Part shown: positions 9,259 to 45,515 of the stretch, one piece after another
Layout: every line of letters starts with the position of its first letter
Position numbering within the stretch: position 1 is the stretch's first letter
Assembly (NCBI GenBank): GCA_003551675.1
Contig: PUNG01000152.1
Span: forward strand, 71,377 to 131,911
Direction of reading: 5' to 3'
DNA length: 60,535 nucleotides
Source of the DNA: Thermoplasmata archaeon
Lineage (GTDB): Archaea; Thermoplasmatota; Thermoplasmata; Halarchaeoplasmatales; Halarchaeoplasmataceae
Program-made: the position numbers and the translations under genes
The notes under the pieces: generated by a model
The model's input: the letters and a program-made list of their open reading frames with translations, nothing else
Databases searched by the model: none
Told to the model about the DNA's origin: nothing

Positions 9259-9888
9259 ATGGCGAAGAAAAAAGGCGTAAAGGGTTTTATGGGATTCAAA
9301 GGGGGTGAAGAGGATGAAGATGTAGGTTGCGAGTACCACATAGAACAGAGTGGTTCAAAAAAGCGTCTGGTGTTAGAATGTACTGAGTGTGATCTTACAC
9401 CTACATTGAAAGACCAAAAGTGCCTTGCTTCAGTCCTCAATTTAATGTCCGATGAGATGGTTATGGATTCAGTCGTATTATCACACTACGAAGATACGGA
9501 ATACTTTGGTCCGTCCATGGATGTTTTGAACAACTTGGTCGATTTCATGGACAGTATAAAGGATTTCACACTCAGGGACCCCATCGCGAGGTATTTTGAT
9601 TATTTGGATGACAAAAATAAGAAAAAACTCAAGTGCCATGAGTGTCCTTTCAATCCATCTATGGTGTTTTCAAGTCTTTATAAAAGTTTCTCCCAAGGCA
9701 TAGAAAAATACGAGATGGATTTCAATACGGTCGTCCGTCAGATAAACAAGTCACCCCAGAGCCATCCGGAATGCGAGGAGTGTACTTACTCGACCCTGGA
9801 GGACCTTGATTATCTAAAGAAGAAATACGAAAGGTTATACAAGATGACCATGAGGCAGATAGGTGGAGAAACTTTGGTAGAGAAGTGA
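9259..9888 (+). CDS. Cysteine-rich hypothetical protein, first gene of the pilus-like locus
   Basis: 209-aa ORF with paired cysteines (CEYH, CTEC, CHEC, CEEC) suggesting metal binding. It lies directly upstream of the secretion ATPase. No family is recognised. Confidence 0.6.
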   Translation: MAKKKGVKGFMGFKGGEEDEDVGCEYHIEQSGSKKRLVLECTECDLTPTLKDQKCLASVLNLMSDEMVMDSVVLSHYEDTEYFGPSMDVLNNLVDFMDSIKDFTLRDPIARYFDYLDDKNKKKLKCHECPFNPSMVFSSLYKSFSQGIEKYEMDFNTVVRQINKSPQSHPECEECTYSTLEDLDYLKKKYERLYKMTMRQIGGETLVEK

Positions 9889-9932
9889 ATTTGATTTTAA
9901 AACATTGATAATTAAAATGGAGATGTGGAAAT

Positions 9933-11759
9933 ATGGAAGCCGGCCAAAATATAGGTAAAGGCAATGTCCCGGGCGGCGGCGCTCAGATGGAAAAAAAAGT
10001 CGACCACGACATGGAAAAAAAGTTCAAAAGTATATTTGAGGCGTATCACAGGGTCAAACCTAAATTTTCCTCTTCTTGGTTGGTACTTAAACCTCCACCG
10101 GGTGCGGAAAAAGTCAAAGAATATTTGGTGGAGGAAGCTAGGATAACCCTTTATCGGCTGCCAGGCGAAACCGAGACCCTCTATCATGTCAAACCTTTGG
10201 AGTACACTTTACCCCAGGGCCAGAAAAAAATAATCACACTGGCTCGTAAGGAGATATTAGATCATTATCCTGGTAAGGAGAGAGGCCATCGACCGGCTTT
10301 CATAAGAGAATATGCAAAAAAAGAAGGCCACCGGCTGATCTACAAGTACGCCAATATCGAAGGAGTCAAATTAGGAAAAACCCGATCCGAAGAGTTGGCT
10401 AGAGTTAGGATGTTATCTAACATACTATCTAGATACACCATAGGTCTTGGGATCGTTGAAATACTGTTGAGAGATACCAGGACCACGGATGTTTACATAG
10501 ATGCTCCAGTAGAGGAAAGTCAGATATATACTATCATATCTTCCACGGGGTTGGACGATTCGATCCCTGCAAAATGTGTCACAAACATAGGACTCACAAA
10601 AGAAAGTGCGGATTCCATCATATCAAGACTGCAATATGAAAGCAGCAGGGCATTTTCAGAGGCTAGACCTGTTCTAGAGTGTAGCTTGGACGAGTATAAA
10701 ACAAGAGCTACAGTAATCGGCGAACCTTTGTCCCCTGAAGGAGTCTCGATAACTTTCAGAAGACATTCGCCCAATCCGTGGACTCTTCTGAGATTGATCT
10801 ACCAAAGGAGTATTTCCCCTCTTTCCGCCGGTTTACTCTCCTTCCTTATAGACGGTAACGCCACTTTGTTGGTAGCGGGTCCAAGAAGCGCAGGAAAGAC
10901 ATCGCTGGTAGCTGCTTTGATGTTTGAATTCCCTCCCAGTCAGCGTATAGTAACCATCGAGGATACTCTGGAGCTGCCTTGCCCCGCATTGAAGGAAAAG
11001 GGTTACAAGGTACAGTCCATGCATATCCAATCCGGCGGTATCGGCGGTCTCGGTGAAGTCACGGCCAAAGATTCACTAAGAGTATCTTTAAGATTGGGTG
11101 AATCTGCGATAGTGATGGGAGAAGTAAGAGGCGAAGAAGCTAGGACCCTGTACGAAGCCATGAGAGCGGGAACTGCCGGTAGTGCCGTTATGGGGACCAT
11201 ACACGCCGACTCCCCTCAAGCGGTCTACGAACGAGTGGTTTATGATCTGAATATCCCTCCAAAATCTTTTGCCGCTACCGATGGTGTAGTGATGGTAAAT
11301 TATAGACGGCCTAAAGGCTTACACCGTTTGGTTAGGAAGACTACTCAGATATCTGAAGTTAACAAGGACGCCATCCCCTCTTTAGTCGGTGCAGAGGAAG
11401 AATTCGTAGGAGGTGAAGAACTCTTCAACGATTTGATGCACTATTCTTCTGAAAAAGATAGGCTCGTAAAGACAGAATTCTTTGAAGGAGCATCATTACT
11501 CATAAAGAAGTTGGCAGATGATTGGGAGATGTCCATAGAAGAGGCGAACAAAAATATACATGCTAGAGCCAGGGTTAGGGCTGCAGTGGTGAACAGGGCA
11601 CAAAAAGAAGGTCGACTTGAACTGTTAGAGGCCGATTACGTGCCGGAGTACAACAACCAATTCTGGAATCTGTTGGAAAGGCAGATGGAGGAGTACGGCG
11701 AAGTTGACTATAACGAATTGGTAACAGACTGGCAAAGATGGTTCAAGGAGAGTTTCTGA
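9933..11759 (+). CDS. Type II/IV secretion system ATPase (archaeal FlaI/PilB/GspE-like)
   Basis: Walker A is VAGPRSAGKTSLV, the Asp/Walker B region is RIVTIEDTLEL, and the His box is GEVRGEEARTLYEAMRAGTAGSAVMGTIHADSP. The stop lies 1 nt before the start of the TadC-like gene. Confidence 0.9.
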   Translation: MEAGQNIGKGNVPGGGAQMEKKVDHDMEKKFKSIFEAYHRVKPKFSSSWLVLKPPPGAEKVKEYLVEEARITLYRLPGETETLYHVKPLEYTLPQGQKKIITLARKEILDHYPGKERGHRPAFIREYAKKEGHRLIYKYANIEGVKLGKTRSEELARVRMLSNILSRYTIGLGIVEILLRDTRTTDVYIDAPVEESQIYTIISSTGLDDSIPAKCVTNIGLTKESADSIISRLQYESSRAFSEARPVLECSLDEYKTRATVIGEPLSPEGVSITFRRHSPNPWTLLRLIYQRSISPLSAGLLSFLIDGNATLLVAGPRSAGKTSLVAALMFEFPPSQRIVTIEDTLELPCPALKEKGYKVQSMHIQSGGIGGLGEVTAKDSLRVSLRLGESAIVMGEVRGEEARTLYEAMRAGTAGSAVMGTIHADSPQAVYERVVYDLNIPPKSFAATDGVVMVNYRRPKGLHRLVRKTTQISEVNKDAIPSLVGAEEEFVGGEELFNDLMHYSSEKDRLVKTEFFEGASLLIKKLADDWEMSIEEANKNIHARARVRAAVVNRAQKEGRLELLEADYVPEYNNQFWNLLERQMEEYGEVDYNELVTDWQRWFKESF

Positions 11760-11760
11760 A

Positions 11761-13785
11761 ATGCCTGAAATGGATAATGAGAAAGATGGAGGTATTTTCG
11801 AGAAGGGCTGTAAATTTGCGAGTACCGTCTTCCAGTTGGATGTATCCACGAAAAGGAAAGAGAGGGAAGAGAAGCGAAAAGAAGAAGATAAAGATATAGA
11901 TAGAAAACTTAAAGAGGAGAAAGAAAAATTTGAAGAGATACGAAAAAAGCACTCCCCTGACAGCCCGAAGTTCAAACGATCTAAGCAGCGGTACGAACTA
12001 GCTCTAAGGGACCATGAGATCGAAAAAGACAAGATCGAAAAGGATGAATTTAGAGCGGCCATAAAGTTCTCCCAGATAGACGCGGAACCTTTTGAAGTCC
12101 AATATTTCGCCTATTTGGTAGGTTTGCTAGTTTTTTTGGGCACGCTGGTTTTGGTTCTTTACGCCTTATTTTTCACGGATATATCAGTGATAATAAAGAT
12201 GAGTTTATTTCTACCAGTAATGGTAGTTCCTCTCCTCGCCATCGCTTTCATCATGAATTTTCCATTTTACATGGCAAAAAGGAGGAGGGCTAAATCCCTA
12301 GGAAGGATGCCGGAAGCCATCAACTATATGGTCATGTCCATGTCGTTGACGCCGAACTTGGGGAGGGCTGTGGAATATGCGGCGGAAAGTGTTGAAGATC
12401 CTTTGTCTTCGGAGTTGAGGAAGATAATCTGGGATGTTGAGATGAGACGCTTCAGCACCATCGATGAATCATTCATGGCCTTCGCCGATGAATGGGGTAA
12501 ATGGAGCGAAGAATTCAGAAGAAGTCTATACACGCTTCGAAATGCGGCCCAGAAGGAGACGCAAAAAGAGGTCAACCAAACTCTACAAAAAGCTAACGAG
12601 ATCGCCGTGAGGGGTACAGAAAATAAGATGAGGGACTTTTCGGAATCACTGACAGTACCGGCTATGACTTTGTTCTCTTTGGGAAGCATACTCCCTCTTT
12701 TGTTAGCTGCACTTTTACCCATTTTGGCCATAGGAGATACCACGGCTGAGATGATAATATTTTTACTGAACGTGGTCATACCAGTTGGCTTTTTAACATA
12801 TGCGGTACACATATTAGGGTATAGGCCGACGATGAGGGCACCACTTCATCTATCTGACCTTCTCACCAAACGAGAAAAATACTCGGTCGTTGGCACATCG
12901 GTAGCTGTAGCCGCTATTATGATATTCTTAGGTTTCTATTGGAGACCCGATCATTCTTACCTGATATCTTTACTCCCTCTATGGGGTATCACCATCGCCA
13001 TAACTATTTATTGTTTCTTTACTTCTTACTTTCCTTTCAAACAAAGAGATAATGTATTGGAGATGGAGAACAGCTTTCCCAATGCACTGTTCCATCTAGG
13101 TGGATACATAAGCAGAGGTTCCCCTCCGGAACGGGCTTTTGAGAAAGTTTCTGAAAACATATACTCCTCCAGCGTCAGTATATTGTTCCAAAAGATATCT
13201 TATTCTCTGCACGTTACAAGAAAGTCTCTCTCCGATGTGTTGTTCGCTAAAGGAGGTGTATTAGAAAAAAATCCTTCTCAGATGATAAAGGCAACCACCA
13301 CCATGGTGGCTAGAGCTATCAAAAAAGACCCAGAAACGGCAGGAGATACTTTGGTAAGGATGTCAGGATACCTTACCGAACTTCAAAACATCGAGGAGGA
13401 GATGAAGAGCAGGCTTGGTGAAGTCACAGGGATGATGAAAGTGACGGCTCAATTTATAGCCCCGTTGGTCATGGGGATCACAGCCGTCCTTTATGTGATG
13501 TTATCCGGATATTTCGCAGATATCGAACTTGAAGGACCTATGGCAGGTATGGCTGGAGGTTTTATAGGTCAAGAAGCTCCCATAGGCGGCTTTGCCTTTT
13601 CTCTGGTAGTAGGTGTTTATCTGATCCTTCTGGTGCTTCTTACCGTGTTCTTCACAGTAGGTATAGAGAGTGGAGAGGACTGGGCCGACAGGAAGATGAC
13701 CGTTGTCAGGATCTTACCTGTATCCATGCTGCTCTACACGATTTCTGCGATACTAGCTGAGATCTTTTTGGCGGGTATAATCTAA
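11761..13785 (+). CDS. Type II secretion system F-family polytopic membrane protein (TadC/FlaJ/PilC-like) with a charged K/E-rich N-terminal extension
   Basis: Two T2SSF-like cytoplasmic segments (MPEAINYMVMSMSLTPNLGRAVEYAA... and NSFPNALFHLGGYISRGSPPERAF...) are each followed by TM helices. The gene is adjacent to the ATPase. The roughly 100-aa N-terminus is lysine/glutamate-rich. Confidence 0.85.
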   Translation: MPEMDNEKDGGIFEKGCKFASTVFQLDVSTKRKEREEKRKEEDKDIDRKLKEEKEKFEEIRKKHSPDSPKFKRSKQRYELALRDHEIEKDKIEKDEFRAAIKFSQIDAEPFEVQYFAYLVGLLVFLGTLVLVLYALFFTDISVIIKMSLFLPVMVVPLLAIAFIMNFPFYMAKRRRAKSLGRMPEAINYMVMSMSLTPNLGRAVEYAAESVEDPLSSELRKIIWDVEMRRFSTIDESFMAFADEWGKWSEEFRRSLYTLRNAAQKETQKEVNQTLQKANEIAVRGTENKMRDFSESLTVPAMTLFSLGSILPLLLAALLPILAIGDTTAEMIIFLLNVVIPVGFLTYAVHILGYRPTMRAPLHLSDLLTKREKYSVVGTSVAVAAIMIFLGFYWRPDHSYLISLLPLWGITIAITIYCFFTSYFPFKQRDNVLEMENSFPNALFHLGGYISRGSPPERAFEKVSENIYSSSVSILFQKISYSLHVTRKSLSDVLFAKGGVLEKNPSQMIKATTTMVARAIKKDPETAGDTLVRMSGYLTELQNIEEEMKSRLGEVTGMMKVTAQFIAPLVMGITAVLYVMLSGYFADIELEGPMAGMAGGFIGQEAPIGGFAFSLVVGVYLILLVLLTVFFTVGIESGEDWADRKMTVVRILPVSMLLYTISAILAEIFLAGII

Positions 13786-13852
13786 GACAAAGGACTAAAT
13801 GATGTTACAAAACGAAGGCCAAAATATACCCGGCCTCTCTGGGCGCATAGGA

Positions 13853-13866
13853 AAATATTTATTATT
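13853..13866 (+). promoter_or_regulatory. Candidate TATA box upstream of gene 13899
   Basis: AAATATTTATTATT lies about 40 nt upstream of the ATG, with AGAGGT 8 nt upstream of the ATG. It shares the 12-mer AAATATTTATTA with 9223-9234. Confidence 0.35.
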
Positions 13867-13898
13867 GAAGTTCATATGAGATTAAAGAGGTAGAAAAA

Positions 13899-14477
13899 AT
13901 GAAAAGGCTACCGGTTAGAAAAATAGAAGAAGACGAAGATGCCCAGATCATGGGGATACCACTTTATATATTGCTCATAGTTATCATAGCGGCGGTGTCC
14001 CTGGCAGCCATACTGGGATTTATGGTGACCACTGAGCCGAGCATAGATGAGATCAGGATACACGACGTGTATCATGGTGAACATGAAGATGTAGGTGATA
14101 TCTATGGATATCAGTCTAGTGTATATGTAGAAGATATAGATGAAGACTCAGGGATAGCCTATTATAGGGGATCTGAACGCCCGGATCCTGAAGATCCTGA
14201 TGGAACTTTATCACCGGCTGAAGGCTACGATACACATCTTGTGGTTACTATTTACAACGAAGAAGGAAGCCCCATGTCAGGTGTAGACGTAGAGGCCGAA
14301 GGAGCAGGAGTGAGTTCCGTAGGAACCACAAATGCTAGTGGGATGGTGGAACTATCATTGGACGGTTGCAGACTCCGCCGAAACCAAAACAACGCCCAGA
14401 TAACGGTAACGGGGACTTACGAAGGACTTATCGGCTCTGAATCCGTAAGAACCAACATATGGGTCCAAAGACCGTAG
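13899..14477 (+). CDS. Pilin-like/N-terminally anchored acidic protein with a carboxypeptidase-regulatory-like beta-sandwich C-terminus
   Basis: A charged leader is followed by a hydrophobic helix (EDEDAQIMGIPLYILLIVIIAAVSLAAILGFMV). The C-terminal motif VVTIYNEEGSPMSGVDVEA...TTNASGMVEL resembles CarboxypepD_reg-like domains. Confidence 0.6.
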   Translation: MKRLPVRKIEEDEDAQIMGIPLYILLIVIIAAVSLAAILGFMVTTEPSIDEIRIHDVYHGEHEDVGDIYGYQSSVYVEDIDEDSGIAYYRGSERPDPEDPDGTLSPAEGYDTHLVVTIYNEEGSPMSGVDVEAEGAGVSSVGTTNASGMVELSLDGCRLRRNQNNAQITVTGTYEGLIGSESVRTNIWVQRP

Positions 14478-14616
14478 GCCTATACGCACCCAACCCTCTT
14501 ATTTTTTATTTTGAAACTATCTACAAACCTCTTCCCAAAATCTTTAAGTATCACTCATGAGCCTATTATAGCTAAGAGTTATTGGGTACCCAAACGATAA
14601 TCAAAAGGTGGATATT

Positions 14617-17600
14617 ATGGAAGATGAAATGAAGAAGTACTTCAGCCCAGAAAGACGTATGGTATTCACCTTCATTGGTGTAACTTTAGCGGTCTCTTTT
14701 ATTGTCTTATCGCTTCTGACTCCTTTTTTGGCCAATGGAGGTATCTCTGAGCCATGTACATCACTTTCAACGAATGAAGATATAGATTCGCAAGAGGACG
14801 AGATAAAACATCTGACCTCCTGGGAACAGAGGACACAAGACGATTTTAAAGAAGGAGATCATACAAATTTAGATATGGATTCATCTCCTGGTGAAGTCAG
14901 GCTAGATTCATACCCCTATGTTATCGGTTCTGCCGAGATGCCTGAAAGCAGAGGGGACTGGAGTGGAGGAAATACGTATAAAACGGGGAGGACAGATTAT
15001 CAAGCGGACCGAGGAGGTACTATCAGGGAAGTCAATATGGCAACAGGGGACTTGGTATCTGATTTTGATTTCTTGGTCCTTAAACCAGGCGAAGGCGAAA
15101 ATGAATTTTGGGTGGACGAACCAGCGGGTTCAGAAACATTCCAACCCGAGGCAGAGGAGCATAACAAGTGGGATGGTCTAGAAATACCCATCGAACAAGG
15201 GGATTGGATCGGTTTGTACACTTACGGTACACTCACTGCAAGAGCTGAACCGGATGCTTCACACAGTTATTATAGTTATAACGGGAAGATCGGAGGTACA
15301 CCTCGAACCATGACTGAATATACTCAGTCATATCATCCAACAATGTCCGCGGAAGTGGAAACATATGAATTTGAAGGGACGCTGGAATCCGAAGTACATT
15401 ATGCGGGTCCCCATATGTATACCTGGGATGAAATAACATGGAGTGCCCAGGAACCAGAAGGATCGGAGTTGATCATCGAGATAAGTACTTCCGAAGATGG
15501 AAGCACCTGGTCCGAATGGGAGGTAGCTCAGAGAGGAGAGGATGTTCCAGGCGACGATAATCATCCTTATATACGGTACAGAGCCACCTTTACATCTGAA
15601 ACCGGAAAGGAGAGTCCGGTGTTAGACCGGATAAGTATGTATTACAGAGTGGGTGAATCCCCTCCTGATATCGTCCACGAGCCTCTGCATGAATGGCAGG
15701 GTTATGGACCTTATACCATCACTGCGGAGGTGACCAGCGATAGCCCCCTTGCGGATCCGCCTAAACTACATTACAACATCGATGGGGAAGAGGAACATGA
15801 ACGATATTTTGAGGCCGATTGGGGAGATCATTTTGAAATAGAGATAGAGGATCTGCCCCATTCAACAGAAGTTGCGTACTACATAGAAGCTGAGAATCAA
15901 GCGGGTATCAGCGAGAGTACCGACGAAGTAACCTTCAGTATAGATAAAGAACCTCCGGAAACTGAGGCAATACTATCAGGTGAAGAAGGCGAAGATGACT
16001 GGTTCATAAACGATGTTACAGTGGAGCTGGACGCTACAGACCTGTACTCTGGAGTAGGGTCTATACGGTATAGTTTCGACGGAGAGGGCTGGGAGGATTA
16101 TAACCGGCCGTTTCAGATAAGTGAGTCAGGGGTACATACCCTTTACTATTACTCTATCGATGGAGTAGGTAATCAAGAGGATGAAAATACCGTAGAGATC
16201 AAGGCAGATCTGGAACCTCCTATCATGGAAATAATCAAACCGGAACCTACCGGGGAAGACGATTGGTATTTAGAAGAGATAGACATACAGATAGTGACGG
16301 AAGACGAAACTTCAGGAGTAGATAGGGTCGAGTACCGCATGGATGATGGTGATTGGGAATCATACCAAAATCGTATCAGTTTAGATGAATCAGGGATATA
16401 CCTCATCGAGGTTCGTTGTTTTGATAACGCAGGGAATGTAAAAGAAGAAGATGCAGTCGAGATCAAAGTAGATCTAGATGATCCTTTGATCGAAACCGAA
16501 ATAATCGCGGAGGAAGGAAGAGATAATTGGTATGTGAGTGAGACCGAAGTAGAACTAGATGCCGAAGACGAAGTATCCTCTATATCTAATATTTTCTACA
16601 GGATCAACGATGAGCAAGAATGGATAGAGTATGACGAGGAGATAGTACTAGGTGATGGAATATATCTACTGGAGTATTACTGCATCAACGGTGCAGGTAG
16701 AGAATCCGAGATAGAAGTGGAAGAGATCAAAGTAGATACATCACCACCAGAACTTAAAATCGAGATGCCCTCGGGAACGGGATGGACTAATGAAGATGGC
16801 ACAGTGAGCGTAGAAACCAAGGATATCATATCGGGTGTGCGAGAGATTAGTTACACGTTGAACAGAACCAACGACGACTGGGAGAATACAACAACTCTTG
16901 AGTATGATGATAATCCCTCTGACGTGAATATTACATTTGACGTACCTCCACACCAACACAGAAGATCAGGTAGATGGGATATAATCGTTGAAGTCAAGGA
17001 TCTAGCAGGGAATATCAACTCTACAGAAATCTTAGATATGAGTCTAGAATATCTTGTAGATTTCGAGGAACCCCTTCTAGACACACCTAAGGCAAGTTCT
17101 ACAGTTTGGAGAAACGACCTCACGATCTCAGTGATGGCGCAATCTCACCACAGCGGTATAGAACGGGTGATTTTGGAATACGATGCAGGGGATGGATGGC
17201 GATCTGAAGATATGAGAGATGAAGGCGGGGAATACACGGCAACCATATCAGGCAGTGAAGTGGGATTCAGCGATGTAGAGTACCGAATAACGGTGACAGA
17301 TGGAGCTGGAAACGAAGTGACCATGGAGGACTCCAAGATCGCTGAAGTCGGCATCAATTGGTGGTACTTAAGTCCCATATTCATCGTGATCGTCCTCATA
17401 ATTGCTTTTGCGTACTGGAAGAAAAACAGGGAGGAGCACGAAAAGCTGATGCCGATGAAAGAATCTAAGCTCTCAAAATTGAGAGGCGACAGAGAAAAGA
17501 AATTAGAACAAATCAAAAGAGATAGATCTGAAAGAACGATGAGTGTATCCTCTACTTCCGAGGAAGATGCACCGCCTCCTCCAGGAGATGATGGAGCACA

Positions 17601-18333
17601 ACCTCCACCGCCACCGGCAGCGGTTTCAGGCACTTCTGAATCGTCGGGACAGGACTGCTGTATCTGTGAAAGTCCAACTGATTCTACTACTGGCTTGGAA
17701 TGTGATTGCGGAAATGTTTACCACGATGATTGCTTGATGGCCGAGAAAAACTGTCTAAGATGTGATAGGGATTATACCGATGTAATTGCTCTTTCGAAGG
17801 GTGAAGAATTAGAAGAGGAAGAGTTTGAAGAGGAAGTTGTATTTGAGTGCTACAGTTGCGGCTCGGAGATCAACGAGGAAGATGAATCCTGTGAAGCATG
17901 TGGAGTCGTTTTCGAGGATGAGTTAGAGGAAGAACAGGAGTCAGAGCAAGAGGTGGAGGAAGAGCAGGAGGAAGAACAGGAGTCAGAGGAAGTGCAGGAG
18001 TCAGAGCAAGAGGTGGAGGAAGAGCAGGAGGAAGAGCAGGAGCCAGAGGAAGAACAGGAGTTAGAGGAAGTGCAAGAGTCAGAGGAAGTGCAGGATTCAG
18101 AGGAAGAGCAGGAATTAGAGGAAGAGCAGGAGCCAGGGGAAGAACAGGAGTCAGAGGAAGAACAGGAATCAGAGATATGGGATGAAGGAACAAGTGAGGG
18201 ATCCGAAAAAGAGACGGAAAAAGCCGAGAAAAAAGCTGACGCCGGTGAAACGATAGTCTGTCCTCTGTGTAATAATAAAAACGAGCCAGGAACTGAAAGA
18301 TGTTGGGCGTGTCATAACGATCTTACTGAGTAA
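14617..18333 (+). CDS. Large two-pass membrane protein: extracellular Ig-like repeats, a cytoplasmic C4HC3 zinc finger, two zinc ribbons and a polyacidic repeat
   Basis: The ATG at 14617 has GGTG 6 nt upstream; the alternative in-frame GTG at 14608 (track start, 1241 aa) overlaps that GGTG. From 14617 the product is 1238 aa. TM1 is MVFTFIGVTLAVSFIVLSLL. Five tandem repeats of about 85-105 aa span 15943-17330, with the motif D..SG(V/I)..(I/V).Y...........(Y/I).......G.(H/Y).(L/I).(Y/V)...D.(A/V)GN. TM2 (WWYLSPIFIVIVLIIAFAYW) is at 17359-17418. The roughly 305-aa tail carries Cys motifs at 17656-17763, 17848-17901 and 18259-18312. Confidence 0.85.
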   Translation: MEDEMKKYFSPERRMVFTFIGVTLAVSFIVLSLLTPFLANGGISEPCTSLSTNEDIDSQEDEIKHLTSWEQRTQDDFKEGDHTNLDMDSSPGEVRLDSYPYVIGSAEMPESRGDWSGGNTYKTGRTDYQADRGGTIREVNMATGDLVSDFDFLVLKPGEGENEFWVDEPAGSETFQPEAEEHNKWDGLEIPIEQGDWIGLYTYGTLTARAEPDASHSYYSYNGKIGGTPRTMTEYTQSYHPTMSAEVETYEFEGTLESEVHYAGPHMYTWDEITWSAQEPEGSELIIEISTSEDGSTWSEWEVAQRGEDVPGDDNHPYIRYRATFTSETGKESPVLDRISMYYRVGESPPDIVHEPLHEWQGYGPYTITAEVTSDSPLADPPKLHYNIDGEEEHERYFEADWGDHFEIEIEDLPHSTEVAYYIEAENQAGISESTDEVTFSIDKEPPETEAILSGEEGEDDWFINDVTVELDATDLYSGVGSIRYSFDGEGWEDYNRPFQISESGVHTLYYYSIDGVGNQEDENTVEIKADLEPPIMEIIKPEPTGEDDWYLEEIDIQIVTEDETSGVDRVEYRMDDGDWESYQNRISLDESGIYLIEVRCFDNAGNVKEEDAVEIKVDLDDPLIETEIIAEEGRDNWYVSETEVELDAEDEVSSISNIFYRINDEQEWIEYDEEIVLGDGIYLLEYYCINGAGRESEIEVEEIKVDTSPPELKIEMPSGTGWTNEDGTVSVETKDIISGVREISYTLNRTNDDWENTTTLEYDDNPSDVNITFDVPPHQHRRSGRWDIIVEVKDLAGNINSTEILDMSLEYLVDFEEPLLDTPKASSTVWRNDLTISVMAQSHHSGIERVILEYDAGDGWRSEDMRDEGGEYTATISGSEVGFSDVEYRITVTDGAGNEVTMEDSKIAEVGINWWYLSPIFIVIVLIIAFAYWKKNREEHEKLMPMKESKLSKLRGDREKKLEQIKRDRSERTMSVSSTSEEDAPPPPGDDGAQPPPPPAAVSGTSESSGQDCCICESPTDSTTGLECDCGNVYHDDCLMAEKNCLRCDRDYTDVIALSKGEELEEEEFEEEVVFECYSCGSEINEEDESCEACGVVFEDELEEEQESEQEVEEEQEEEQESEEVQESEQEVEEEQEEEQEPEEEQELEEVQESEEVQDSEEEQELEEEQEPGEEQESEEEQESEIWDEGTSEGSEKETEKAEKKADAGETIVCPLCNNKNEPGTERCWACHNDLTE
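17917..18176 (+). repeat. In-frame acidic (E/Q/S/V) tandem repeat inside CDS 14617..18333
   Basis: 17941-18000 and 18001-18060 align with a 60-bp period and only a few mismatches. They are embedded in degenerate 18-bp units GAGGAAGNNCAGGAGNCA that encode EEEQESE-type peptides. Confidence 0.85.
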
Positions 18334-18353
18334 AACAAAGAGGAAGATAAGAT

Positions 18354-18860
18354 ATGAGAGAGTTAAAACGATCTGAAGATGGAGTGATGGATTATCCATT
18401 TAGACTATTGATCATATCCATCGTGCTGGTCATAGCTATACCAACGATGCTTTCGGCTTTATCTCACTACCGCACGAGGAGTGCAGAAGAGCAGCTCTCT
18501 CAAGAAGCGAACCAGATCGCATCGGCGGTGGAAAGTGTTTACATACAAGGTGTGAACGCAAGCACCAGTTTAGAAATAAATCTGCCTGAGGATACAGAGC
18601 ATTTGAAGGTTGGTGCTCCTCTATCTAGATCAGTTCATACTAGAGCTATTTATTATCAACTCAGGGGACAACCCGAGGACTCTATCCTTGTGACCCATGG
18701 TCTTCGAGGCATCCCTATGACTTCTCCACACAATGACACCCTTATAATACCCGAAGGCAGACACAGAATTTTGATGGTGAAAAGACAAGCAGACTTTGAT
18801 ATAACCGGTGATGGAGTCGCAGGCGATTACTTTGTTGAGATCGACGTGATGGAGTGGTAG
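18354..18860 (+). CDS. Pilin-like protein (putative class III signal peptide)
   Basis: The N-terminus MRELKRSEDGVMDYPFRLLIISIVLVIAIPTML is a short charged leader ending in G followed by a hydrophobic helix. The gene lies in the pilus-like locus, with its stop 1 nt before the next start. Confidence 0.65.
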   Translation: MRELKRSEDGVMDYPFRLLIISIVLVIAIPTMLSALSHYRTRSAEEQLSQEANQIASAVESVYIQGVNASTSLEINLPEDTEHLKVGAPLSRSVHTRAIYYQLRGQPEDSILVTHGLRGIPMTSPHNDTLIIPEGRHRILMVKRQADFDITGDGVAGDYFVEIDVMEW

Positions 18861-18861
18861 T

Positions 18862-19377
18862 ATGCTGGATTGGGCCCTCTCAAAGGTGTTTATATCTATA
18901 TTTACCATGGGCATAGTAGTTTTCTCTATATTCGTTTTTTCCGCTGCTAGAGATGATCTAGGAGAAACCCAGTTAGAGAATATATCCAAAGAAATATCTT
19001 CTCGAGTAAATGAACTGTCCAATACGTACTCTAACTCATCAGTTTACTTCACATTCAGAGAGAACGCTTCCGCTATCGAACTACCTTCGGACATGGATGG
19101 AGATGAATATGATATCCGGATCAGTTCTGACAGTGTTACTGTCCAGATGGATGGAAAACTGGCTTCTTCAGATATTCGCGCCGAAGATGCAAGCAGGGTT
19201 CACCTGTGGCACCCTGACAAAATAAATTATACTACGAATCAAACGGAATTAGAAGAACTCGATAACGAGAACAGGTTTTTAGATGTGGTTTCTGGAGAGG
19301 GATTCAGAGTGGTCAGGACAGAACTGATAGTTAACGGCGAGATCGAATACCACACCTTTATCTTTGAAGATTATTAG
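18862..19377 (+). CDS. N-terminally anchored small protein, paralog of CDS 44988..45515
   Basis: N-terminal TM is VFISIFTMGIVVFSIFVFSA. The blocks DGDEYDIRIS...VQMDG...VHLWHPD correspond to NGDPYDMEIT...LKQDG...IHLWEPG in the 175-aa protein at 44988. Confidence 0.65.
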   Translation: MLDWALSKVFISIFTMGIVVFSIFVFSAARDDLGETQLENISKEISSRVNELSNTYSNSSVYFTFRENASAIELPSDMDGDEYDIRISSDSVTVQMDGKLASSDIRAEDASRVHLWHPDKINYTTNQTELEELDNENRFLDVVSGEGFRVVRTELIVNGEIEYHTFIFEDY

Positions 19378-19436
19378 AGGATGGTAGAAGCATACTCTGC
19401 GTAGTGTATACTCTTGTCTAAGCGAGTTTTCAGTTC

Positions 19437-22400
19437 CTACTCTCTGAGGCAAAAAATGTTTTCGTAGATGTGATATTGATCAACATATGTTTTTTCTTCT
19501 TCATCATCCAACACGGTTCTACCTAATTCTGCTGTAAAGAAGTCCGCTTTTCTTCCGATCCCTATGGAAGGTTCTGCCGATGCCCACCAAGCAAAGTTTC
19601 CTCTGGTGTAGTTTCCTTCAGGACCTATTATTTCAAAAGAATAATTGTTCAACATGTTTTCATCGGTCCGTGTGAAAAGAGAGGGTGCGGGAGAATTAAT
19701 TCCTAGATTTCTACCCACGAAACGTATGTCGTTGATGAATAGTCTAACATACTCGATCATTTCGTTCTGAGTGGTACTGTTTGTCCAGTAGATGAAGCGC
19801 CTCTGCTGTAAGGAGGAATAAGATTCATTGACATGGAAATAGAAACCTATCTCATCCAGTTCTTGGAACAACTCAGGCTCTTTGTACAGTTCTTCATGCA
19901 TCTCTTTCAAAAGATCCTTGGTGAAATGAATAAAGCCATCATAAGAGTTGTTCTTGTCTTCCAAAGCAGCGGTGAACCAATCCTCCACTTCCACCGGTAG
20001 TTCTCCTCCTCTTGTTTTTATACCTACGTCTACAGAATGATTATAACCTAGGTTGGGAAGTTTGATATTGGTGAAATAGTCCTCTTCGACATCGTATAGA
20101 CTGATCTCATGGGCTGAGAGTCTCTCCGGAGGATAAAACAATTCAAAACTGAAATTATCCAGCGTTGTGTTTTTATATGCCTCTATCACTACGCGTTCAT
20201 CCCGGTTTGGATCGACTTCGATCTTTAGGTCAGTGTTTCCAAAACGTTGGGCGGTATAACTGAATTCCTCTTCACCCAGCTCAAACACGATCTCCGTCCG
20301 ATTACTTTTATAAGTCGGACTCAGTATATCTTCTTCAAGGTCGACACTTAGATCGAATCCCATGGAAGGATATTCAAACACGCTTTTTTCTACTCCGTCA
20401 GGTAGTGCCGTATCCAATATGTTGTTTTTTTCTTTCTCTATAAACTCAAAATAAGCGGTATCGTTGTAGGTATCATAATATATATTGTCTATGGTACTCA
20501 TCAAACTGGTCAGATCCGAACTGGTATGATCTGCATCGGCTAGAGCCGAGTGAGTACCTCCTCTTAGATGCGCACGGACGGAATTTAGAGTGTTAGTAGA
20601 CCTAGATAACACATCAGTTTTTGCCTGGGTTAGGTTCATCAAAGGTCTCGAAACATAGATGGCTTCTTCTTTCAAAGGTTTCCAAACATCTTTAGTGTAG
20701 TCTAGATCCAACGGTTCTTCCTCCTTTAACTCAAAATAACTCCTAGTCATCTGATAGTTCACATCATTGGTTAGCCAACCGGATTCAAGCGGCCAGGCGG
20801 TATGTATCGGCAGAGTGTAGTTGTAATCCAGTTCCAATGTTCCGTTGTACCAGGTTGATCTGTGGACGCCAACAGGTATGTTTCTGCGGGAAGTGGTGGT
20901 ATTGACCCCAAGAGTTCCCTGTATAGAAACATTAAGTGCTGTTTGAAATGAACTCCACGACATGTTAGTCCTCAATTCCGGTTCTTCCGCATATCTTCCC
21001 TGCACGTCCACGAAATGTTGACCCTTTTTTGGATATTCTATATCTATGGTGAGATTGTCTCCATCTTCTTCAAGATACTCGGAAAATTCAACATGGTAGG
21101 TTTCATTGAGGACTCTCTGCCGTTGCTCGTCGTAGGTGCGGTTGACACGCCAATTGTATCGCGGCTGGGTTGAGTCCGTGGCTAAAAAGAGCTCCTCTTG
21201 ATTGACATAAGTGTTCCTGTGTATGTCACGCAAAGTTGTTTCTTGTAGTTTATGCTGAAGCCAGCCGTTCTCCTGAGAGAGGTTCAACAGCATGTTCTCT
21301 CTCTCGTTCTCATGGCCGATGCTTCTCACAGCGATATGCTCTAAAACAAAATCATAAAAATTTCCTTCCCCCACGCGTTCTCCTTCGTATTCGCCCACAT
21401 CCGTGGTTTCGTCCATATCTTCTTTTAATTCCTGCGTGATCTGGTCTTCTGAAAGCAGACCATGTTCACCGACGACTTCTTCCGTGGCCTCTCGTATATC
21501 CTCCCATAGTCTGTCCCAGATGGCCTGATCGTGCCAGGTTGTCTGTGCATCAGTGGGGATTATCGAGTTTCTATAATTTAAGCACTGGGGGCAGGCCCAA
21601 CAAGGTTGTCCTATCGTGGTCTCCCAAGCTTCGTCTAAAAACGACTGTCTTCTTGGTATAGCTATATCTCTTACTCTTTGATTGACGTCTTTCATGGCAT
21701 CCTGGCGGAAAGAGAAAGTACCTTGGGAAGATTCGCCGTCACTGCGCTGCTCTTCTTCAGGTGGTTCTAACGAAACCGTTCCTTCAGGATTACCCTCCCT
21801 TTCCACTCCTCCGTCGTATAGGTTGACCACGGCTTCATACCAAAGGTCTACGGTCTCGCTGGTCAAGTGGTAAAGAAAATCATCTTCGTATTCTCTTTTA
21901 TAAGCACCTTCGCCCCACCATTCGTCCCTTTGATAAAAATCATCCGTTATCTCTTCAAATTCATTTATAGCTTCGTTGATGGGTCCTTCTTCTTCAGAGA
22001 TCATGTATTCAGTACCGTTCATCAACATGGATCTATTATCTTCTGGATCTATATCTATGTCGAATTCTTTCGTGCCAACCATCTCGGCCATATCATGACT
22101 TATGGTATCCATGAAACCTTTTTCTTCTACGTCATCGATATCTTCCGAACGCTGTCTTACACTGCGATTGATGGTTTCAAGTATATATTCTAGAGTGTCG
22201 TAGTAAGGCGTATTTCTTCCTTGATCGTACCTGGCGATGAAAGACTCCTGGACCAAATAATATTCTATGGATCTAGCAGGTACACTACTGAAATCATCAT
22301 CAAAGTGTAGAACATAAGTTTCAGGATCAAGGTCGTTGTTTTCAGGATCTCCGAGTATTAGGTCTATGGTATCAGGCACCTCGTCGGACTCCATCTCCCA

Positions 22401-23762
22401 ATTACCTTGCTGATGATTCGGACCCACACTGAACACCCAATAATGCCCTCCAACGGGTCGAGGAGGTTCTGTAGAATGACATTCCCATATGTAATCTGAT
22501 CCGTATTCTGTCGCCGAAGTTCTAGAATGCATTTTCCTTATCTCAGTACTAGCCTCCTGGGCGTCGAGACTTTCTGGTATGTCCAACCAGTCTCTGTACA
22601 CCTCCAACCAGGTCCTCACCTGCTTTTCGGCCCATTCCTCTCCCTTCTCTTCCATGGCCTCCCAGTCCACCACCGGTTCGGAGAGCGTAGGATCAACTAT
22701 CTCATCTCCCCAGAACAGTTCGTAGAGATCCAAAACAAAATCTTCGCCGAAGGGATAGATCGCTTGAGCCAAAACCTTCCCTGCATCGACTTCCTGCTCT
22801 TTTATGTTTTGGTACATCAGGAAAACGTCGGCTGCATCTATAGTGCCGTTTTTAGTGTAATTTTCGAGCATGGAATCCACGCCCATTTTCTCTGCAATAT
22901 CTTCATCGTAATCACCGTAAAGTCTAGAGGCTTCCAGCAGTAAAGCCAAGTTCACAGCTATCTCCACATCTTCTTTAGTCAACAAACTTTCTATATCCCC
23001 CTCGTTCTCCCCGTAACCACCGCTGGCGTTGCCGAAAAGAGTTCTGGTCTGGGTTATGGTAGATAACTGATATCTTATCAATTTGCCCACTTCACCAAAG
23101 GGATCCCGAGATTCTCCTTTGAACTCCTCGAATCGACCTTTCAAGTAAAAGATAGGAGAGTATACGTTCTCGTGGAATTCTTTGTTATAAGTCACGTTGT
23201 GTCCCGAGGCTTCGCTGTAAACCGACATCTTCAGTTCGCCCATAACTCTTCCATAGAGCGGGGTTTTCTGTTCTCCATAGGAGCTGCGGTTAGTATGATC
23301 CCCTTCCTCTAACGGAGAAGCTTGGAACGGTTCTATTGTTTCATCTTGAGGATAAAACTGATCGTTAGTTTGCTGCGTATCTCTCACGTCCGATACTATG
23401 CTTATGGACCAATCATCTAGGTAAACTATACTGTTCCTTGCTCTTGAGGGGTAGGTATTGTTGATATACTCCTCAAAAGATTCTTCCACAGTCGTTTGAA
23501 GCGTAGACATATCAGGGTCCCGCTCTTTGGTCAACCCATGTATCTCCTGGAGTACTAGATGATGTGCTCTCGTAGAGAGATCATTTTTTGCCTCTGCAGC
23601 AGCTTCAGAAGTCTGTCTATTGGGGTTGTATATAGAGACGTCTCTGCCCGATTCATCGATCTGTCCCACCATGGCAAAAGCTATGGTCGAAAGTAAAATT
23701 AGAACCACACCTATCAATGCAAAGGGTATCTTCCCACGGTCATCCATCATTATTTCTCGCAA
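19437..23762 (-). CDS. Giant (1441 aa) N-terminally anchored, probably extracellular glycoprotein of unknown function; paralog of CDS 45512..50905
   Basis: An uninterrupted 4.3-kb ORF. GAGGT lies about 6 nt upstream of the TTG at 23762, and there are ATGs at 23750 and 23747. The N-terminus is DDRGKIPFALIGVVLILLSTIAFAMV. Many N-x-S/T sequons are visible by eye. Two collinear blocks are shared with the 1797-aa protein: PIFYLKGRFEEFKGE / NFFLMAERMENFRLE and EIAVNLALLLEASRLYGDYDED / QAIVELALLLEQARVFRSYDEE. Confidence 0.85.
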   Translation of the reverse strand: MREIMMDDRGKIPFALIGVVLILLSTIAFAMVGQIDESGRDVSIYNPNRQTSEAAAEAKNDLSTRAHHLVLQEIHGLTKERDPDMSTLQTTVEESFEEYINNTYPSRARNSIVYLDDWSISIVSDVRDTQQTNDQFYPQDETIEPFQASPLEEGDHTNRSSYGEQKTPLYGRVMGELKMSVYSEASGHNVTYNKEFHENVYSPIFYLKGRFEEFKGESRDPFGEVGKLIRYQLSTITQTRTLFGNASGGYGENEGDIESLLTKEDVEIAVNLALLLEASRLYGDYDEDIAEKMGVDSMLENYTKNGTIDAADVFLMYQNIKEQEVDAGKVLAQAIYPFGEDFVLDLYELFWGDEIVDPTLSEPVVDWEAMEEKGEEWAEKQVRTWLEVYRDWLDIPESLDAQEASTEIRKMHSRTSATEYGSDYIWECHSTEPPRPVGGHYWVFSVGPNHQQGNWEMESDEVPDTIDLILGDPENNDLDPETYVLHFDDDFSSVPARSIEYYLVQESFIARYDQGRNTPYYDTLEYILETINRSVRQRSEDIDDVEEKGFMDTISHDMAEMVGTKEFDIDIDPEDNRSMLMNGTEYMISEEEGPINEAINEFEEITDDFYQRDEWWGEGAYKREYEDDFLYHLTSETVDLWYEAVVNLYDGGVEREGNPEGTVSLEPPEEEQRSDGESSQGTFSFRQDAMKDVNQRVRDIAIPRRQSFLDEAWETTIGQPCWACPQCLNYRNSIIPTDAQTTWHDQAIWDRLWEDIREATEEVVGEHGLLSEDQITQELKEDMDETTDVGEYEGERVGEGNFYDFVLEHIAVRSIGHENERENMLLNLSQENGWLQHKLQETTLRDIHRNTYVNQEELFLATDSTQPRYNWRVNRTYDEQRQRVLNETYHVEFSEYLEEDGDNLTIDIEYPKKGQHFVDVQGRYAEEPELRTNMSWSSFQTALNVSIQGTLGVNTTTSRRNIPVGVHRSTWYNGTLELDYNYTLPIHTAWPLESGWLTNDVNYQMTRSYFELKEEEPLDLDYTKDVWKPLKEEAIYVSRPLMNLTQAKTDVLSRSTNTLNSVRAHLRGGTHSALADADHTSSDLTSLMSTIDNIYYDTYNDTAYFEFIEKEKNNILDTALPDGVEKSVFEYPSMGFDLSVDLEEDILSPTYKSNRTEIVFELGEEEFSYTAQRFGNTDLKIEVDPNRDERVVIEAYKNTTLDNFSFELFYPPERLSAHEISLYDVEEDYFTNIKLPNLGYNHSVDVGIKTRGGELPVEVEDWFTAALEDKNNSYDGFIHFTKDLLKEMHEELYKEPELFQELDEIGFYFHVNESYSSLQQRRFIYWTNSTTQNEMIEYVRLFINDIRFVGRNLGINSPAPSLFTRTDENMLNNYSFEIIGPEGNYTRGNFAWWASAEPSIGIGRKADFFTAELGRTVLDDEEEKTYVDQYHIYENIFCLRE

Positions 23763-23829
23763 AATTATACCTCTTTCTAAGTGATATAGTGTTTTTAAGA
23801 TTATTTATATATTCCGCTATTTTCGTACA

Positions 23830-24360
23830 TCAGGCTAACCAGATCCTCAGATTGGCGGTATAGGTTTTGTTATCGTCTGGCGTATGAAGTTCTTGAGACG
23901 CTGAGAAAACCTCTTCTCTACCCTCAACTGGCTGACCAAAGTTGAAAGAAGCGTTACCAGAAGACCAGGCGGTGAAGTTAAAATCATATTGAGGATGGAT
24001 CAATCGTTGTAAGGATTCGTTGAGAGGGCTCTCTATACCTTCTATTAAACTCTTGTTCTCCACATCGGTATTATCTCTCAGATATAGATTTTCAACGATC
24101 AGTTCCGAGGTCGTTTTATCGTCTAAGTGGATAGTTTCGTTCTCGTATTCATAAGAAGTGCGGCTCAGTGTCGAATGTAGGAATGAATCCAATGTACTTT
24201 CCCCGTAAACTCTCATGGATTCCTTTGCTTCTGGTGAGCTAGAAGGGAAGGAAACAAAGGCTAAGATCAAAGACCCTATCATCGCGATGCTGAAGAAGAT
24301 AAGCGCGTCTATTAAACTAGACTGTCCTTCATCTGAACGGGTCAATCTATTCATCTCCAC
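23830..24360 (-). CDS. Pilin-like protein with a class III signal peptide-like N-terminus
   Basis: MEMNRLTRSDEG|QSSLIDALIFFSIAMIGSLILAFV is a charged leader with a G-Q junction followed by a hydrophobic helix. The gene overlaps the upstream gene by 10 nt. Confidence 0.7.
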   Translation of the reverse strand: MEMNRLTRSDEGQSSLIDALIFFSIAMIGSLILAFVSFPSSSPEAKESMRVYGESTLDSFLHSTLSRTSYEYENETIHLDDKTTSELIVENLYLRDNTDVENKSLIEGIESPLNESLQRLIHPQYDFNFTAWSSGNASFNFGQPVEGREEVFSASQELHTPDDNKTYTANLRIWLA

Positions 24361-44987: not shown

Positions 44988-45515
44988 ATGAACATGATAC
45001 AATGGTTGCAGTCAAAGATAGTCCTCATAGCTGTTGTAGTAATCATGATATCCTCAGTAACTACCTTTTTTTATTATCAGATAGGTGAACTCGAAGAACA
45101 GGAGTTGGAGGGCAGAGGTCGAAAACTTTCTCGGATAATAACCGATATGCAAAATTCGGGAGTGGATGAGATGAGCCAGAGAGTGACTTTTCACGAGGAA
45201 AATGACGGAATATATCTCTCTCCAGAGGTGAATGGGGATCCGTATGACATGGAGATAACTACCGGCTATTTGAGGTTGAAACAGGACGGTACAGAAAAGA
45301 TCATACCTTTGAACACCAATATTCACCTATGGGAACCCGGGATGATGAACCATACGGGTTATCTGAGTCCAGAAGAGATGGAATGGCGTGATGGAAGAGA
45401 ATCATCTCTTGAATTACGGGCGGGAGATGTGGGTCTCAAGCTGATTTCACTACGATTATATGATGGCAGTGCTCATGAGAACCACATATTTATCAGGGAG
45501 GTGCCCTCTAGTTGA
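44988..45515 (+). CDS. N-terminally anchored small protein, paralog of CDS 18862..19377
   Basis: The N-terminal TM is IVLIAVVVIMISSVTTFFYY. It shares blocks with the 171-aa protein (see 18862). Its stop overlaps the start of the giant gene by 4 nt. Confidence 0.7.
   Translation: MNMIQWLQSKIVLIAVVVIMISSVTTFFYYQIGELEEQELEGRGRKLSRIITDMQNSGVDEMSQRVTFHEENDGIYLSPEVNGDPYDMEITTGYLRLKQDGTEKIIPLNTNIHLWEPGMMNHTGYLSPEEMEWRDGRESSLELRAGDVGLKLISLRLYDGSAHENHIFIREVPSS

Follow-up and report, generated by a model that had tools for sequence, protein, structure and literature searches.

RING-type fingers are a hallmark of eukaryotic ubiquitin ligases, and their prokaryotic relatives, known from sequence analysis, have to our knowledge almost never been put to the test. 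What, then, is a finger of this appearance doing at the end of an archaeal surface protein? The question is raised by a stretch of 60,535 nucleotides (nt) from a Thermoplasmata archaeon (assembly GCA_003551675.1, contig PUNG01000152.1, positions 71,377 to 131,911 of the forward strand), to which we refer as the window. The host is a halo(alkali)philic member of the Thermoplasmatota, related to Candidatus (Ca.) Natronoplasma and belonging to the order Ca. Halarchaeoplasmatales. An earlier note, made from the letters alone, had described the gene at 14617-18333 as a two-pass membrane protein joining extracellular Ig-like repeats to a cytoplasmic C4HC3 finger of RING-CH/PHD type and two zinc ribbons. 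The analysis reported here establishes the anatomy of this surface protein, its conservation, the RING-like identity of its finger and its position in an operon.

A RING-like finger of the prokaryotic kind

The gene and the finger that it encodes are as follows.

14617..18333, + strand: whole gene, a surface protein of 1238 amino acids (aa) with a cytoplasmic zinc-finger tail
17656..17763, + strand: C4HC3 RING-like (Prok-RING_1-type) binuclear finger, from the family profile, Pfam, AlphaFold and Foldseek

A six-frame pattern scan returned the finger at exactly the coordinates first proposed for it, did the same for the two zinc ribbons (17848-17901 and 18259-18312), and met no second C4HC3 motif in the window. 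The eight ligands are C1014, C1017, C1029, C1031, H1036, C1039, C1046 and C1049; in the orthologue alignment C1014 is the first ligand and C1015 is not conserved. Using a profile of the orthologue fingers, an exhaustive hidden Markov model search of 1.84 billion representatives yielded 37 proteins at E <= 1e-3. These comprise further orthologues and paralogues and about 20 other proteins that carry one to four tandem copies of the finger, with the recurrent pattern C-x2-C-x(10-12)-C-x-C-G-x2-[YF]-H-x2-C-x(6-7)-C-x2-C. The weakest of the 37 are several eukaryotic-looking RING-H2-type proteins lacking C4HC3 and a few low-complexity or repeat proteins.

In an alignment of 44 fingers, the RING ligand series C-x2-C-x(n)-C-x-C-x4-H-x2-C-x(n)-C-x2-C is present throughout and all eight ligands are invariant. 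The profile of these 44 sequences matches solved RING-H2 domains in the PDB over their full length, best of all RNF24 (E = 9.4e-7), with RNF4, Arkadia (8e-6), RNF165 and gp78 at 5e-6 to 5e-5 and synoviolin at 1.2e-4. Compared with Pfam member by member at E <= 0.01, zf-RING_2 is found in 40/44 and Prok-RING_1 in 35/44, and multi-finger relatives pass the RING cut-offs outright (P0008 with 50.9 bits on Prok-RING_1, P0013 with 46.8 bits on zf-RING_2). The RING assignment of the window's finger is transitive, made through this wider family, because its own copy scores below threshold and a profile of the orthologues alone is marginal.

Structure prediction points the same way. A single-sequence AlphaFold model of a 107-aa tail segment was unusable (pLDDT 50); given the 44-sequence alignment, the model reaches pLDDT 86.8, with a beta-hairpin bearing C1029/C1031 and a helix that begins at H1036-x2-C1039. 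A zinc knuckle together with a helix N-terminus at that site is the treble-clef arrangement expected of the first site of a cross-brace. When the model was compared with the PDB by Foldseek, the top 50 matches were almost only RING domains (among them TRAF6, TRIM21, RNF125, RNF165, gp78 and RNF13), with TM-scores of 0.55-0.73 and root-mean-square deviations of 2.1-2.5 Å. Family profile, Pfam matches, predicted fold and Foldseek thus support a cross-brace of RING/PHD type over two sequential ribbons, in agreement with the earlier note.

Which kind of cross-brace is it? We compared the finger with RING/Prok-RING_1 (PF14446), PHD (PF00628), RING-CH/RINGv and C1 (PF00130). The spacing of RING-CH fingers is C-x2-C-x(10-45)-C-x-C-x7-H-x2-C-x(11-25)-C-x2-C. 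Here four residues rather than seven separate the fourth Cys from the His, the last loop has six residues, and RINGv gave no match even at E <= 10; the RING-CH (MARCH-type) assignment suggested at first is therefore withdrawn. A C1 domain is rejected on the terminal C-x2-C, the want of a conserved His upstream of the first ligand, and a C1_1 score of 15-16 bits against a cut-off of 26.5. A review gives C4HC3 as the typical configuration of prokaryotic RINGs (PMC11354881); Prok-RING_1 comes from the work of Burroughs, Iyer and Aravind 2011 (Mol Biosyst 7:2261; cited in PMC4506424 and PMC11354881). Judged by its ligands and family matches, it is best labelled a RING-like finger of prokaryotic type with C4HC3 ligands.

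The finger belongs to a probably exported, membrane-anchored protein

The features between the N-terminus and the membrane are listed here.

14659..14736, + strand: N-terminal hydrophobic segment, aa 15-40, by hydropathy; probable Sec signal peptide or signal anchor
14749..15687, + strand: N-terminal ectodomain region, aa 45-357, conserved with 44% mean identity among orthologues
15688..15951, + strand: Ig-like domain, aa 358-445, from an orthologue-profile match
15952..17352, + strand: five tandem OmpL47/Big_13-type beta-sandwich repeats, from NCBIfam, Pfam and shuffles
15952-16215, + strand: repeat R1, aa 446-533
16216-16476, + strand: repeat R2, aa 534-620
16477-16740, + strand: repeat R3, aa 621-708
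16741-17064, + strand: repeat R4, aa 709-816
17065-17352, + strand: repeat R5, aa 817-912
17353..17421, + strand: transmembrane (TM) helix 2 (TM2), aa 913-935, by hydropathy

According to the list of open reading frames (ORFs), the frame on the + strand starts at 14608 (GTG) or 14617 (ATG) and ends at 18333; because the ATG corresponds to the start of the orthologues, we adopted 14617 and hence 1238 aa. Three orthologues at 47-49% identity come from Ca. Natronoplasma and other metagenome-assembled genomes (MAGs) of Thermoplasmatota, one of them already annotated by NCBI as "PHD finger domain-containing protein". The gene is found in several salt-lake and soda-lake metagenomes and was matched in none of the RNA-seq runs searched. 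In each of four independent salt-/soda-lake metagenome assemblies a single contig spans 14400-17964 unbroken. An assembly chimera is thereby ruled out, and ectodomain, TM helix and finger are truly fused. A strain variant differs from the window by 12 synonymous and 5 non-synonymous changes, all in the ectodomain and none in the tail. The confinement of these polymorphisms to the ectodomain, together with its fast divergence, suggests that it is exposed at the surface.

Of the two-pass topology first proposed, the two hydrophobic segments stand on hydropathy, and the N-terminal one is likely to be removed. A-x-A-like sites follow it in paralogues, for example between TPASA and SMEQE in P0006, which makes a cleavable Sec signal peptide likely; the mature protein may therefore cross the membrane once. 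We read the N-termini by eye and saw no class III (prepilin) site, [KRDE]-[GA], before the hydrophobic stretch. It is preceded by R-R-M in the window and by K-S-F, L-S-F or I-S-F in the orthologues, and on this reading a class III signal peptide was rejected for this surface protein.

The second hydrophobic segment does appear to span the membrane, with a run of about 23 aa and a Kyte-Doolittle mean of 2.0-2.2 over 19 residues; its mean identity among relatives is 56%. Its flanks are acidic outside and K/R-rich inside (KKNREEHEKLMPMKESKLSKLRGDREKK), 12 K/R falling within the next 30 residues, and 17/20 of the Cys residues lie within the last 225, in the tail. Both the positive-inside rule and this confinement of Cys fit an orientation, as the earlier note also had it, in which the ectodomain would be outside and the tail in the cytoplasm.

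The ectodomain is acidic and about 870 aa long. Its first part (aa 45-357) has no sequence match in Pfam or the PDB and could be assigned to no family. The only match for an orthologue profile of aa 60-445 is an Ig-like domain, that of P. gingivalis peptidylarginine deiminase (E ~3e-6), over aa ~358-445. The five tandem repeats reported at the outset are confirmed by three kinds of evidence. Against 200 shuffles, R1-R3 resemble one another at z = 19-26 and R4 and R5 resemble R1/R2 at z = 5.7-7.9, the R3/R5 pair alone being not significant; NCBIfam places the OmpL47-type beta-barrel domain NF047446 on four stretches within aa 455-716 with 163.5 bits (cut-off 40); and Pfam Big_13 scores 36 bits against 27.

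The tail is a constrained module

Behind TM2 the tail comprises 303 aa, in which the following features flank the finger.

17422..17511, + strand: basic juxtamembrane segment, WKKxREEHEKLMPxKESKxSKI...KL, from the alignment of relatives
17569..17619, + strand: Pro-rich flexible linker PPPPGDDGAQPPPPPAA, aa 985-1001, read from the sequence; 24% identity
17848..17901, + strand: middle zinc ribbon, CxxC-x10-CxxC, by pattern scan
17920..18174, + strand: acidic tandem repeat, 18-nt unit in ~13.5 copies, by Tandem Repeats Finder; 59% D+E
18259..18312, + strand: C-terminal zinc ribbon, CPxCxN...CWAC, by pattern scan; kept in all full-length relatives

The best-conserved region of the whole protein is the juxtamembrane segment, with 59% mean identity and the invariant residues R938, E939, P946, K948, S950, K962 and L963. 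Finger and C-terminal ribbon each reach 52%; the linkers between them stay at 24-28% and vary in length. The proline-rich stretch and the polyacidic repeat mentioned in the earlier note are both present, the latter encoded by the 18-nt tandem repeat. All four short-read metagenome assemblies break inside this repeat, and minor contigs carry small deletions near 18108-18113, so its copy number may differ between strains.

The zinc-ribbon pattern, two CxxC knuckles 8-20 residues apart, was met twice in the tail and compared with Zn_ribbon_3, Zn_Ribbon_1, DZR and DUF7577. The window's copies score 17-20 bits against cut-offs of 25-28; the C-terminal ribbon of two orthologues exceeds them (34.6 bits on Zn_ribbon_3, 34.1 bits on DUF7577). 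The middle ribbon, at E = 5e-4 on Pfam Zn_ribbon_3 and under the cut-off, occurs in 3/10 relatives, namely the window, P0001 and P0003. From these patterns the tail is predicted to bind four zinc ions, two in the finger and one in each ribbon.

In one paralogue (P0007) the same cassette, from the TM helix through the juxtamembrane segment and the finger to the C-terminal ribbon, follows an unrelated ectodomain of InlB B-repeats. Constrained in sequence and reused in this way, the tail is therefore a portable module.

The tail cassette and the finger recur across hypersaline Thermoplasmatota

When one genome per GTDB species was scanned, the tail cassette turned up at 11 loci in 6 genomes, a genome holding up to three paralogues and the best match being 50% identical to the window; 6/11 loci are the pilus-operon orthologue. 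All the genomes are hypersaline or soda-lake Thermoplasmatota, one of them labelled Aenigmatarchaeota. That label is probably wrong, a binning artefact: the MAG named Candidatus Aenigmatarchaeota encodes a 1083-aa protein in the same 90%-identity cluster (P0007) as a Ca. Natronoplasma protein, and it carries the whole operon (loci L006 and L011). Of the ten finger-family clusters looked up, all that bear a source name are from Thermoplasmatota.

The finger by itself is wider spread. It is always C-terminal to the last TM helix in 19 membrane-bound members: 13 large surface proteins, 3 bitopic proteins of small size and 3 archaeosortase-C-like membrane enzymes (P0024, P0037 and P0041). These enzymes pass the cut-off of the exosortase/archaeosortase signature TIGR04178 and end in one C4HC3 finger, and this links the finger to the machinery of surface-protein processing. 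Soluble members include P0015, with an FHA domain and three copies of the finger; P0008, P0013, P0016, P0019 and P0022, with 2-4 tandem fingers; and P0039, with one finger followed by several zinc ribbons. Going by these matches, the C4HC3 finger is not rare, occurring in 1-4 copies on many Thermoplasmatota proteins. The remark that cross-brace fingers are rare in archaea does not hold for this one, which belongs with the described Prok-RING_1 group.

The gene lies in a pilus-like operon

The gene is preceded by an operon block at 9259..14477 (+) and followed by a block at 18354..24360.

9259-9888, + strand: 209-aa Cys-containing protein, first gene of the operon, no family match
9933-11759, + strand: TadA/FlaI-family ATPase (Pfam T2SSE, 59 bits; NCBIfam TadA/FlaI/VirB11 similarity)
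11761-13785, + strand: TadC/FlaJ-like platform protein (T2SSF, 23.2 bits, just under the cut-off)
13899-14477, + strand: 192-aa Ig-like protein with an N-terminal TM segment
18354-18860, + strand: DUF7311-like (weak Pfam match, below cut-off)
18862-19377, + strand: DUF7266-like (weak Pfam match, below cut-off)
19437-23762, - strand: 1441-aa DUF7286-like protein with a pilin-like N-terminus (weak Pfam match, below cut-off)
23830-24360, - strand: 176-aa protein

The order of ATPase, TadC-like and pilin-like genes is kept in seven related loci. Upstream, the gene order is the same in L001, L006 and L008 and partly covered in L002, L003 and L007; downstream, the operon genes are syntenic, with 58-78% identity in most related loci and 38-47% in the most distant (L014). 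Judged by gene content and order, this is an archaeal type IV pilus-like operon of the TadA/TadC type, conserved in hypersaline Thermoplasmatota, and the gene of the finger protein has a fixed position in it. That gene is also the fastest-evolving one there, 48-49% identical in the closest loci (L001, L006 and L008), where its operon neighbours are 66-84% identical, as expected of an exposed surface protein.

The 209-aa protein at the head of the operon is conserved in relatives at 73-74% identity; its N-terminal part contains Cys and His (CEYH...CTEC), and it has no match in Pfam, NCBIfam or the PDB. We regard it as a candidate cytoplasmic partner of the tail. In L001 a second paralogue with the same tail follows the DUF7266-like gene in the same operon (15142-18564; P0043, 1140 aa, of the P0006 cluster). 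The window has no room for one, position 19377 bordering a gene that ends at 19437.

The remaining window is ordinary archaeal chromosome, with genes for glycerol catabolism, gyrase, tRNA synthetases and an XPD-like helicase. Two further loci deserve mention. At 25809-28541 (-) lies a 910-aa protein of cyanophycin synthetase-like architecture, with cyanophycin synthase N-terminal, ATP-grasp and Mur-ligase domains, in an archaeal genome. At 44988-50905 (+) lies a pair of genes: the first encodes 175 aa with a hydrophobic segment at the N-terminus, the second an acidic protein of 1797 aa that has a pilin-like N-terminus and matches nothing in Pfam or NCBIfam. The two may form a further set of surface or pilus-related proteins.

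What the tail might do

On balance, we consider it probable that the gene encodes an adhesin-like, exported and membrane-anchored surface protein with a zinc-stabilised docking tail, and that the tail does not act as a ubiquitin-type ligase. Export through Sec would rely on the N-terminal signal or anchor, one C-terminal TM helix would hold it in the membrane, and the ectodomain would serve as an adhesin or stalk. Within the finger, C1014/C1017/H1036/C1039 would form cross-brace site 1 and C1029/C1031/C1046/C1049 site 2. Finger, ribbon and juxtamembrane segment would then dock the tail to a cytoplasmic partner, either the pilus ATPase/platform or a sub-membrane partner common to the other finger-bearing surface proteins and the archaeosortase-like enzymes. 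We favour such a partner of cell-surface proteins (or the pilus ATPase/platform) because the finger follows the last TM helix across surface proteins and archaeosortase-C-like enzymes alike, and, with no sign of a ubiquitin system in the ORFs scanned, the finger is most likely a docking module. The topology, the binding of zinc, the docking and the partner's identity are our inference.

Several observations weigh against this reading or the RING assignment on which it builds. The window's finger lies below every Pfam threshold (zf-RING_2 16.7-17.8 bits against 27.3, Prok-RING_1 unreported), and the orthologue-only profile yields marginal PDB matches. Foldseek E-values are just ~0.02, from a 48-residue query, and the AlphaFold model, free of zinc and with coordinates not inspected, lends support at the level of the fold only. 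The family also keeps two hydrophobic positions by which RINGs bind E2, with I/V following C1 in 40/44 members and P following C7 in 31/44. Finally, 5/11 tail loci lie outside pilus operons, and P0007 and the three-finger P0025 likewise have no pilus genes nearby. An exclusive tie of the cassette to pilus loci is ruled out by these cases, and the partner need not be the pilus machinery.

Among the alternatives, the best placed is an outside-in receptor, in which engagement of the ectodomain would alter the state or oligomerisation of the tail and so recruit or release an effector regulating pilus assembly or gene expression. The protein is bitopic, its juxtamembrane segment and tail are conserved, its place in the pilus operon is fixed, and in some genomes a second same-tail paralogue in the operon would make pairing possible. 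We nevertheless think it unlikely. No kinase, HAMP, cyclase or DNA-binding domain was recognised in the tail or the neighbouring genes; long unstructured linkers, variable in length and poorly conserved, are ill-suited to coupling across a membrane; and the finger is also carried by proteins that are not receptors, namely archaeosortase-like enzymes and soluble multi-finger proteins.

Could the docking tail instead be a true E3-type ligase? It would then be an archaeal TM RING analogous to PA-TM-RING, RNF24, ZNRF3 and Hrd1, conjugating a ubiquitin-like protein (Ubl; e.g. SAMP) to cytoplasmic or membrane targets and perhaps controlling the turnover of pili or surface proteins. The best matches in sequence and structure are indeed catalytic RING-H2 E3s, several of them membrane-anchored (RNF24, gp78/AMFR, synoviolin, RNF13 and ZNRF3). 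The positions C1+2 and C7+1, where the family keeps I/V and P, are E2-contact positions of RINGs in RING-E2 complexes. Yet Leu replaces the Pro after C7 in the window, the C6-C7 loop of six residues leaves out the E2-contacting aromatic position of the central helix, and no basic linchpin is conserved after C8, which is followed by Gly in 22/44 and by Asp in the window. We know of no E2 enzymes in the Thermoplasmatota. No gene for E1, E2, Ubl or JAB was found among the 39 window ORFs scanned, ten ORFs (29.7-38.7 kb and after 55.9 kb) remaining unscanned, and none in the called genes of the syntenic and related loci. Prokaryotic RINGs linked to E1/E2/JAB operons are on record (PMC7159879), but with these genes not found and the contact surface altered, we hold ligase activity to be improbable.

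It is equally improbable, in our judgement, that there is no cross-brace at all. The finger would then consist of two independent zinc knuckles or ribbons in sequence, or be a module of C1 or PHD type for binding peptides or lipid head groups at the membrane, and its likeness to RINGs would be a coincidence of spacing. The window's finger alone does score about as weakly on zf-RING_2 as on C1_1 and PHD (E 0.009-0.06), some family members match C1_1/C1_2 and PHD, the C-x-C-x4-H-x2-C spacing resembles PHD and C1 rather than RING-H2, and the last loop is unusually short. Across the family, RING models match more members with better E-values (40/44 as against 15/44 for PHD and 5-8/44 for C1), and solved RINGs are reached at 1e-6 to 1e-5 where PHD domains stand at 6e-4 or worse and the Raf C1 domain at 6e-3. 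The Foldseek matches are RINGs, the helix at H-x2-C is a treble-clef signature, and in place of the N-terminal His that C1 needs the family has a terminal C-x2-C. Since PHD and C1 are interleaved two-zinc folds as well, only the sequential form contradicts a cross-brace.

We consider it least likely of all that these are working TM RING ligases, precursors or counterparts among prokaryotes of the TM-RING E3s of eukaryotes. They would couple events at the cell surface or pilus to conjugation of a Ubl (e.g. SAMP) on cytoplasmic targets, and the archaeosortase-finger fusions would be part of the same system of surface-protein control.

The locus is a concrete, conserved and independently assembled case of a RING-like finger forming the cytoplasmic tail of an archaeal pilus-operon surface protein. 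Many other surface proteins of the Thermoplasmatota, and archaeosortase-like enzymes too, bear this finger; the recurrent layout of surface protein, TM helix and RING finger and the link to those enzymes are worth following. If the docking module that we favour is right, cell-surface proteins in this phylum would be organised by a cytoplasmic partner so far unrecognised; were the finger a ligase, which is unlikely, the question of how membrane-bound E3s arose would be touched.

Comparison with known systems

The ectodomain repeats strongly match the repeat-domain model of Leptospira OmpL47 (NF047441/NF047446). Only this domain is common to the two, the full-length equivalog score being 126 against a cut-off of 250, and OmpL47 itself lacks a tail of TM helix plus zinc finger. 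According to Makarova et al. 2016 (PMC4858521), archaeal type IV pilus loci often encode large adhesins or S-layer-like proteins anchored by a C-terminal TM helix, as well as zinc-ribbon proteins. Like the former, the present protein is large and secreted, has a C-terminal anchor and stands beside genes for a VirB11/TadA-family ATPase, a TadC-like protein and a pilin-like protein. A RING-type finger on a long cytoplasmic tail is not among the features described in the passages of that paper considered here, and the name Thermoplasma does not occur in its text.

With PHD fingers the finger shares the C4HC3 order and the C-x4-H-x2-C spacing, and it weakly matches PHD models as well as the PHD structures of MLL3, PHF24 and Pygopus. 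The MLL3 match is inflated by a GSSGSSG expression tag that aligns with the Ser-rich linker, and it was not counted. PHD fingers have a C6-C7 loop of at least 12 residues, where this finger has 6, and a conserved Trp before C7, which this finger lacks; they are chromatin-associated, whereas the archaeal finger is tethered to the membrane. With 13.9 bits against 24 in addition, PHD membership is rejected.

The eukaryotic membrane-anchored RING-H2 E3s (RNF24, PA-TM-RINGs such as RNF13, ZNRF3/RNF43, gp78/AMFR and Hrd1/synoviolin) are what the finger matches best in sequence and structure, and they have the same layout, an ecto- or luminal domain, a TM helix and a cytoplasmic RING. They differ at ligands 3-5, which read C-x-H-x2-H there and C-x-C-x4-H here, and the archaeal protein has a shortened central-helix loop and no PA domain. 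Neither an E2 nor ubiquitin is known from its host. The resemblance is one of layout, not of membership.

The closest kin are the fingers of Prok-RING_1 (PF14446), which have the C4HC3 order, are archaeal and often membrane-associated, and are matched by most of this family. The differences are the very short C6-C7 loop (6-7 residues) of the present family, the sub-threshold score of the window's copy, and the setting, at the end of a pilus-operon surface protein of ~1240 aa with no ubiquitin-system genes found nearby in the ORFs scanned. The kind of finger is thus already known, and the one described here is a divergent member of it: a refinement of annotation and a lead to follow, rather than a new kind of system.

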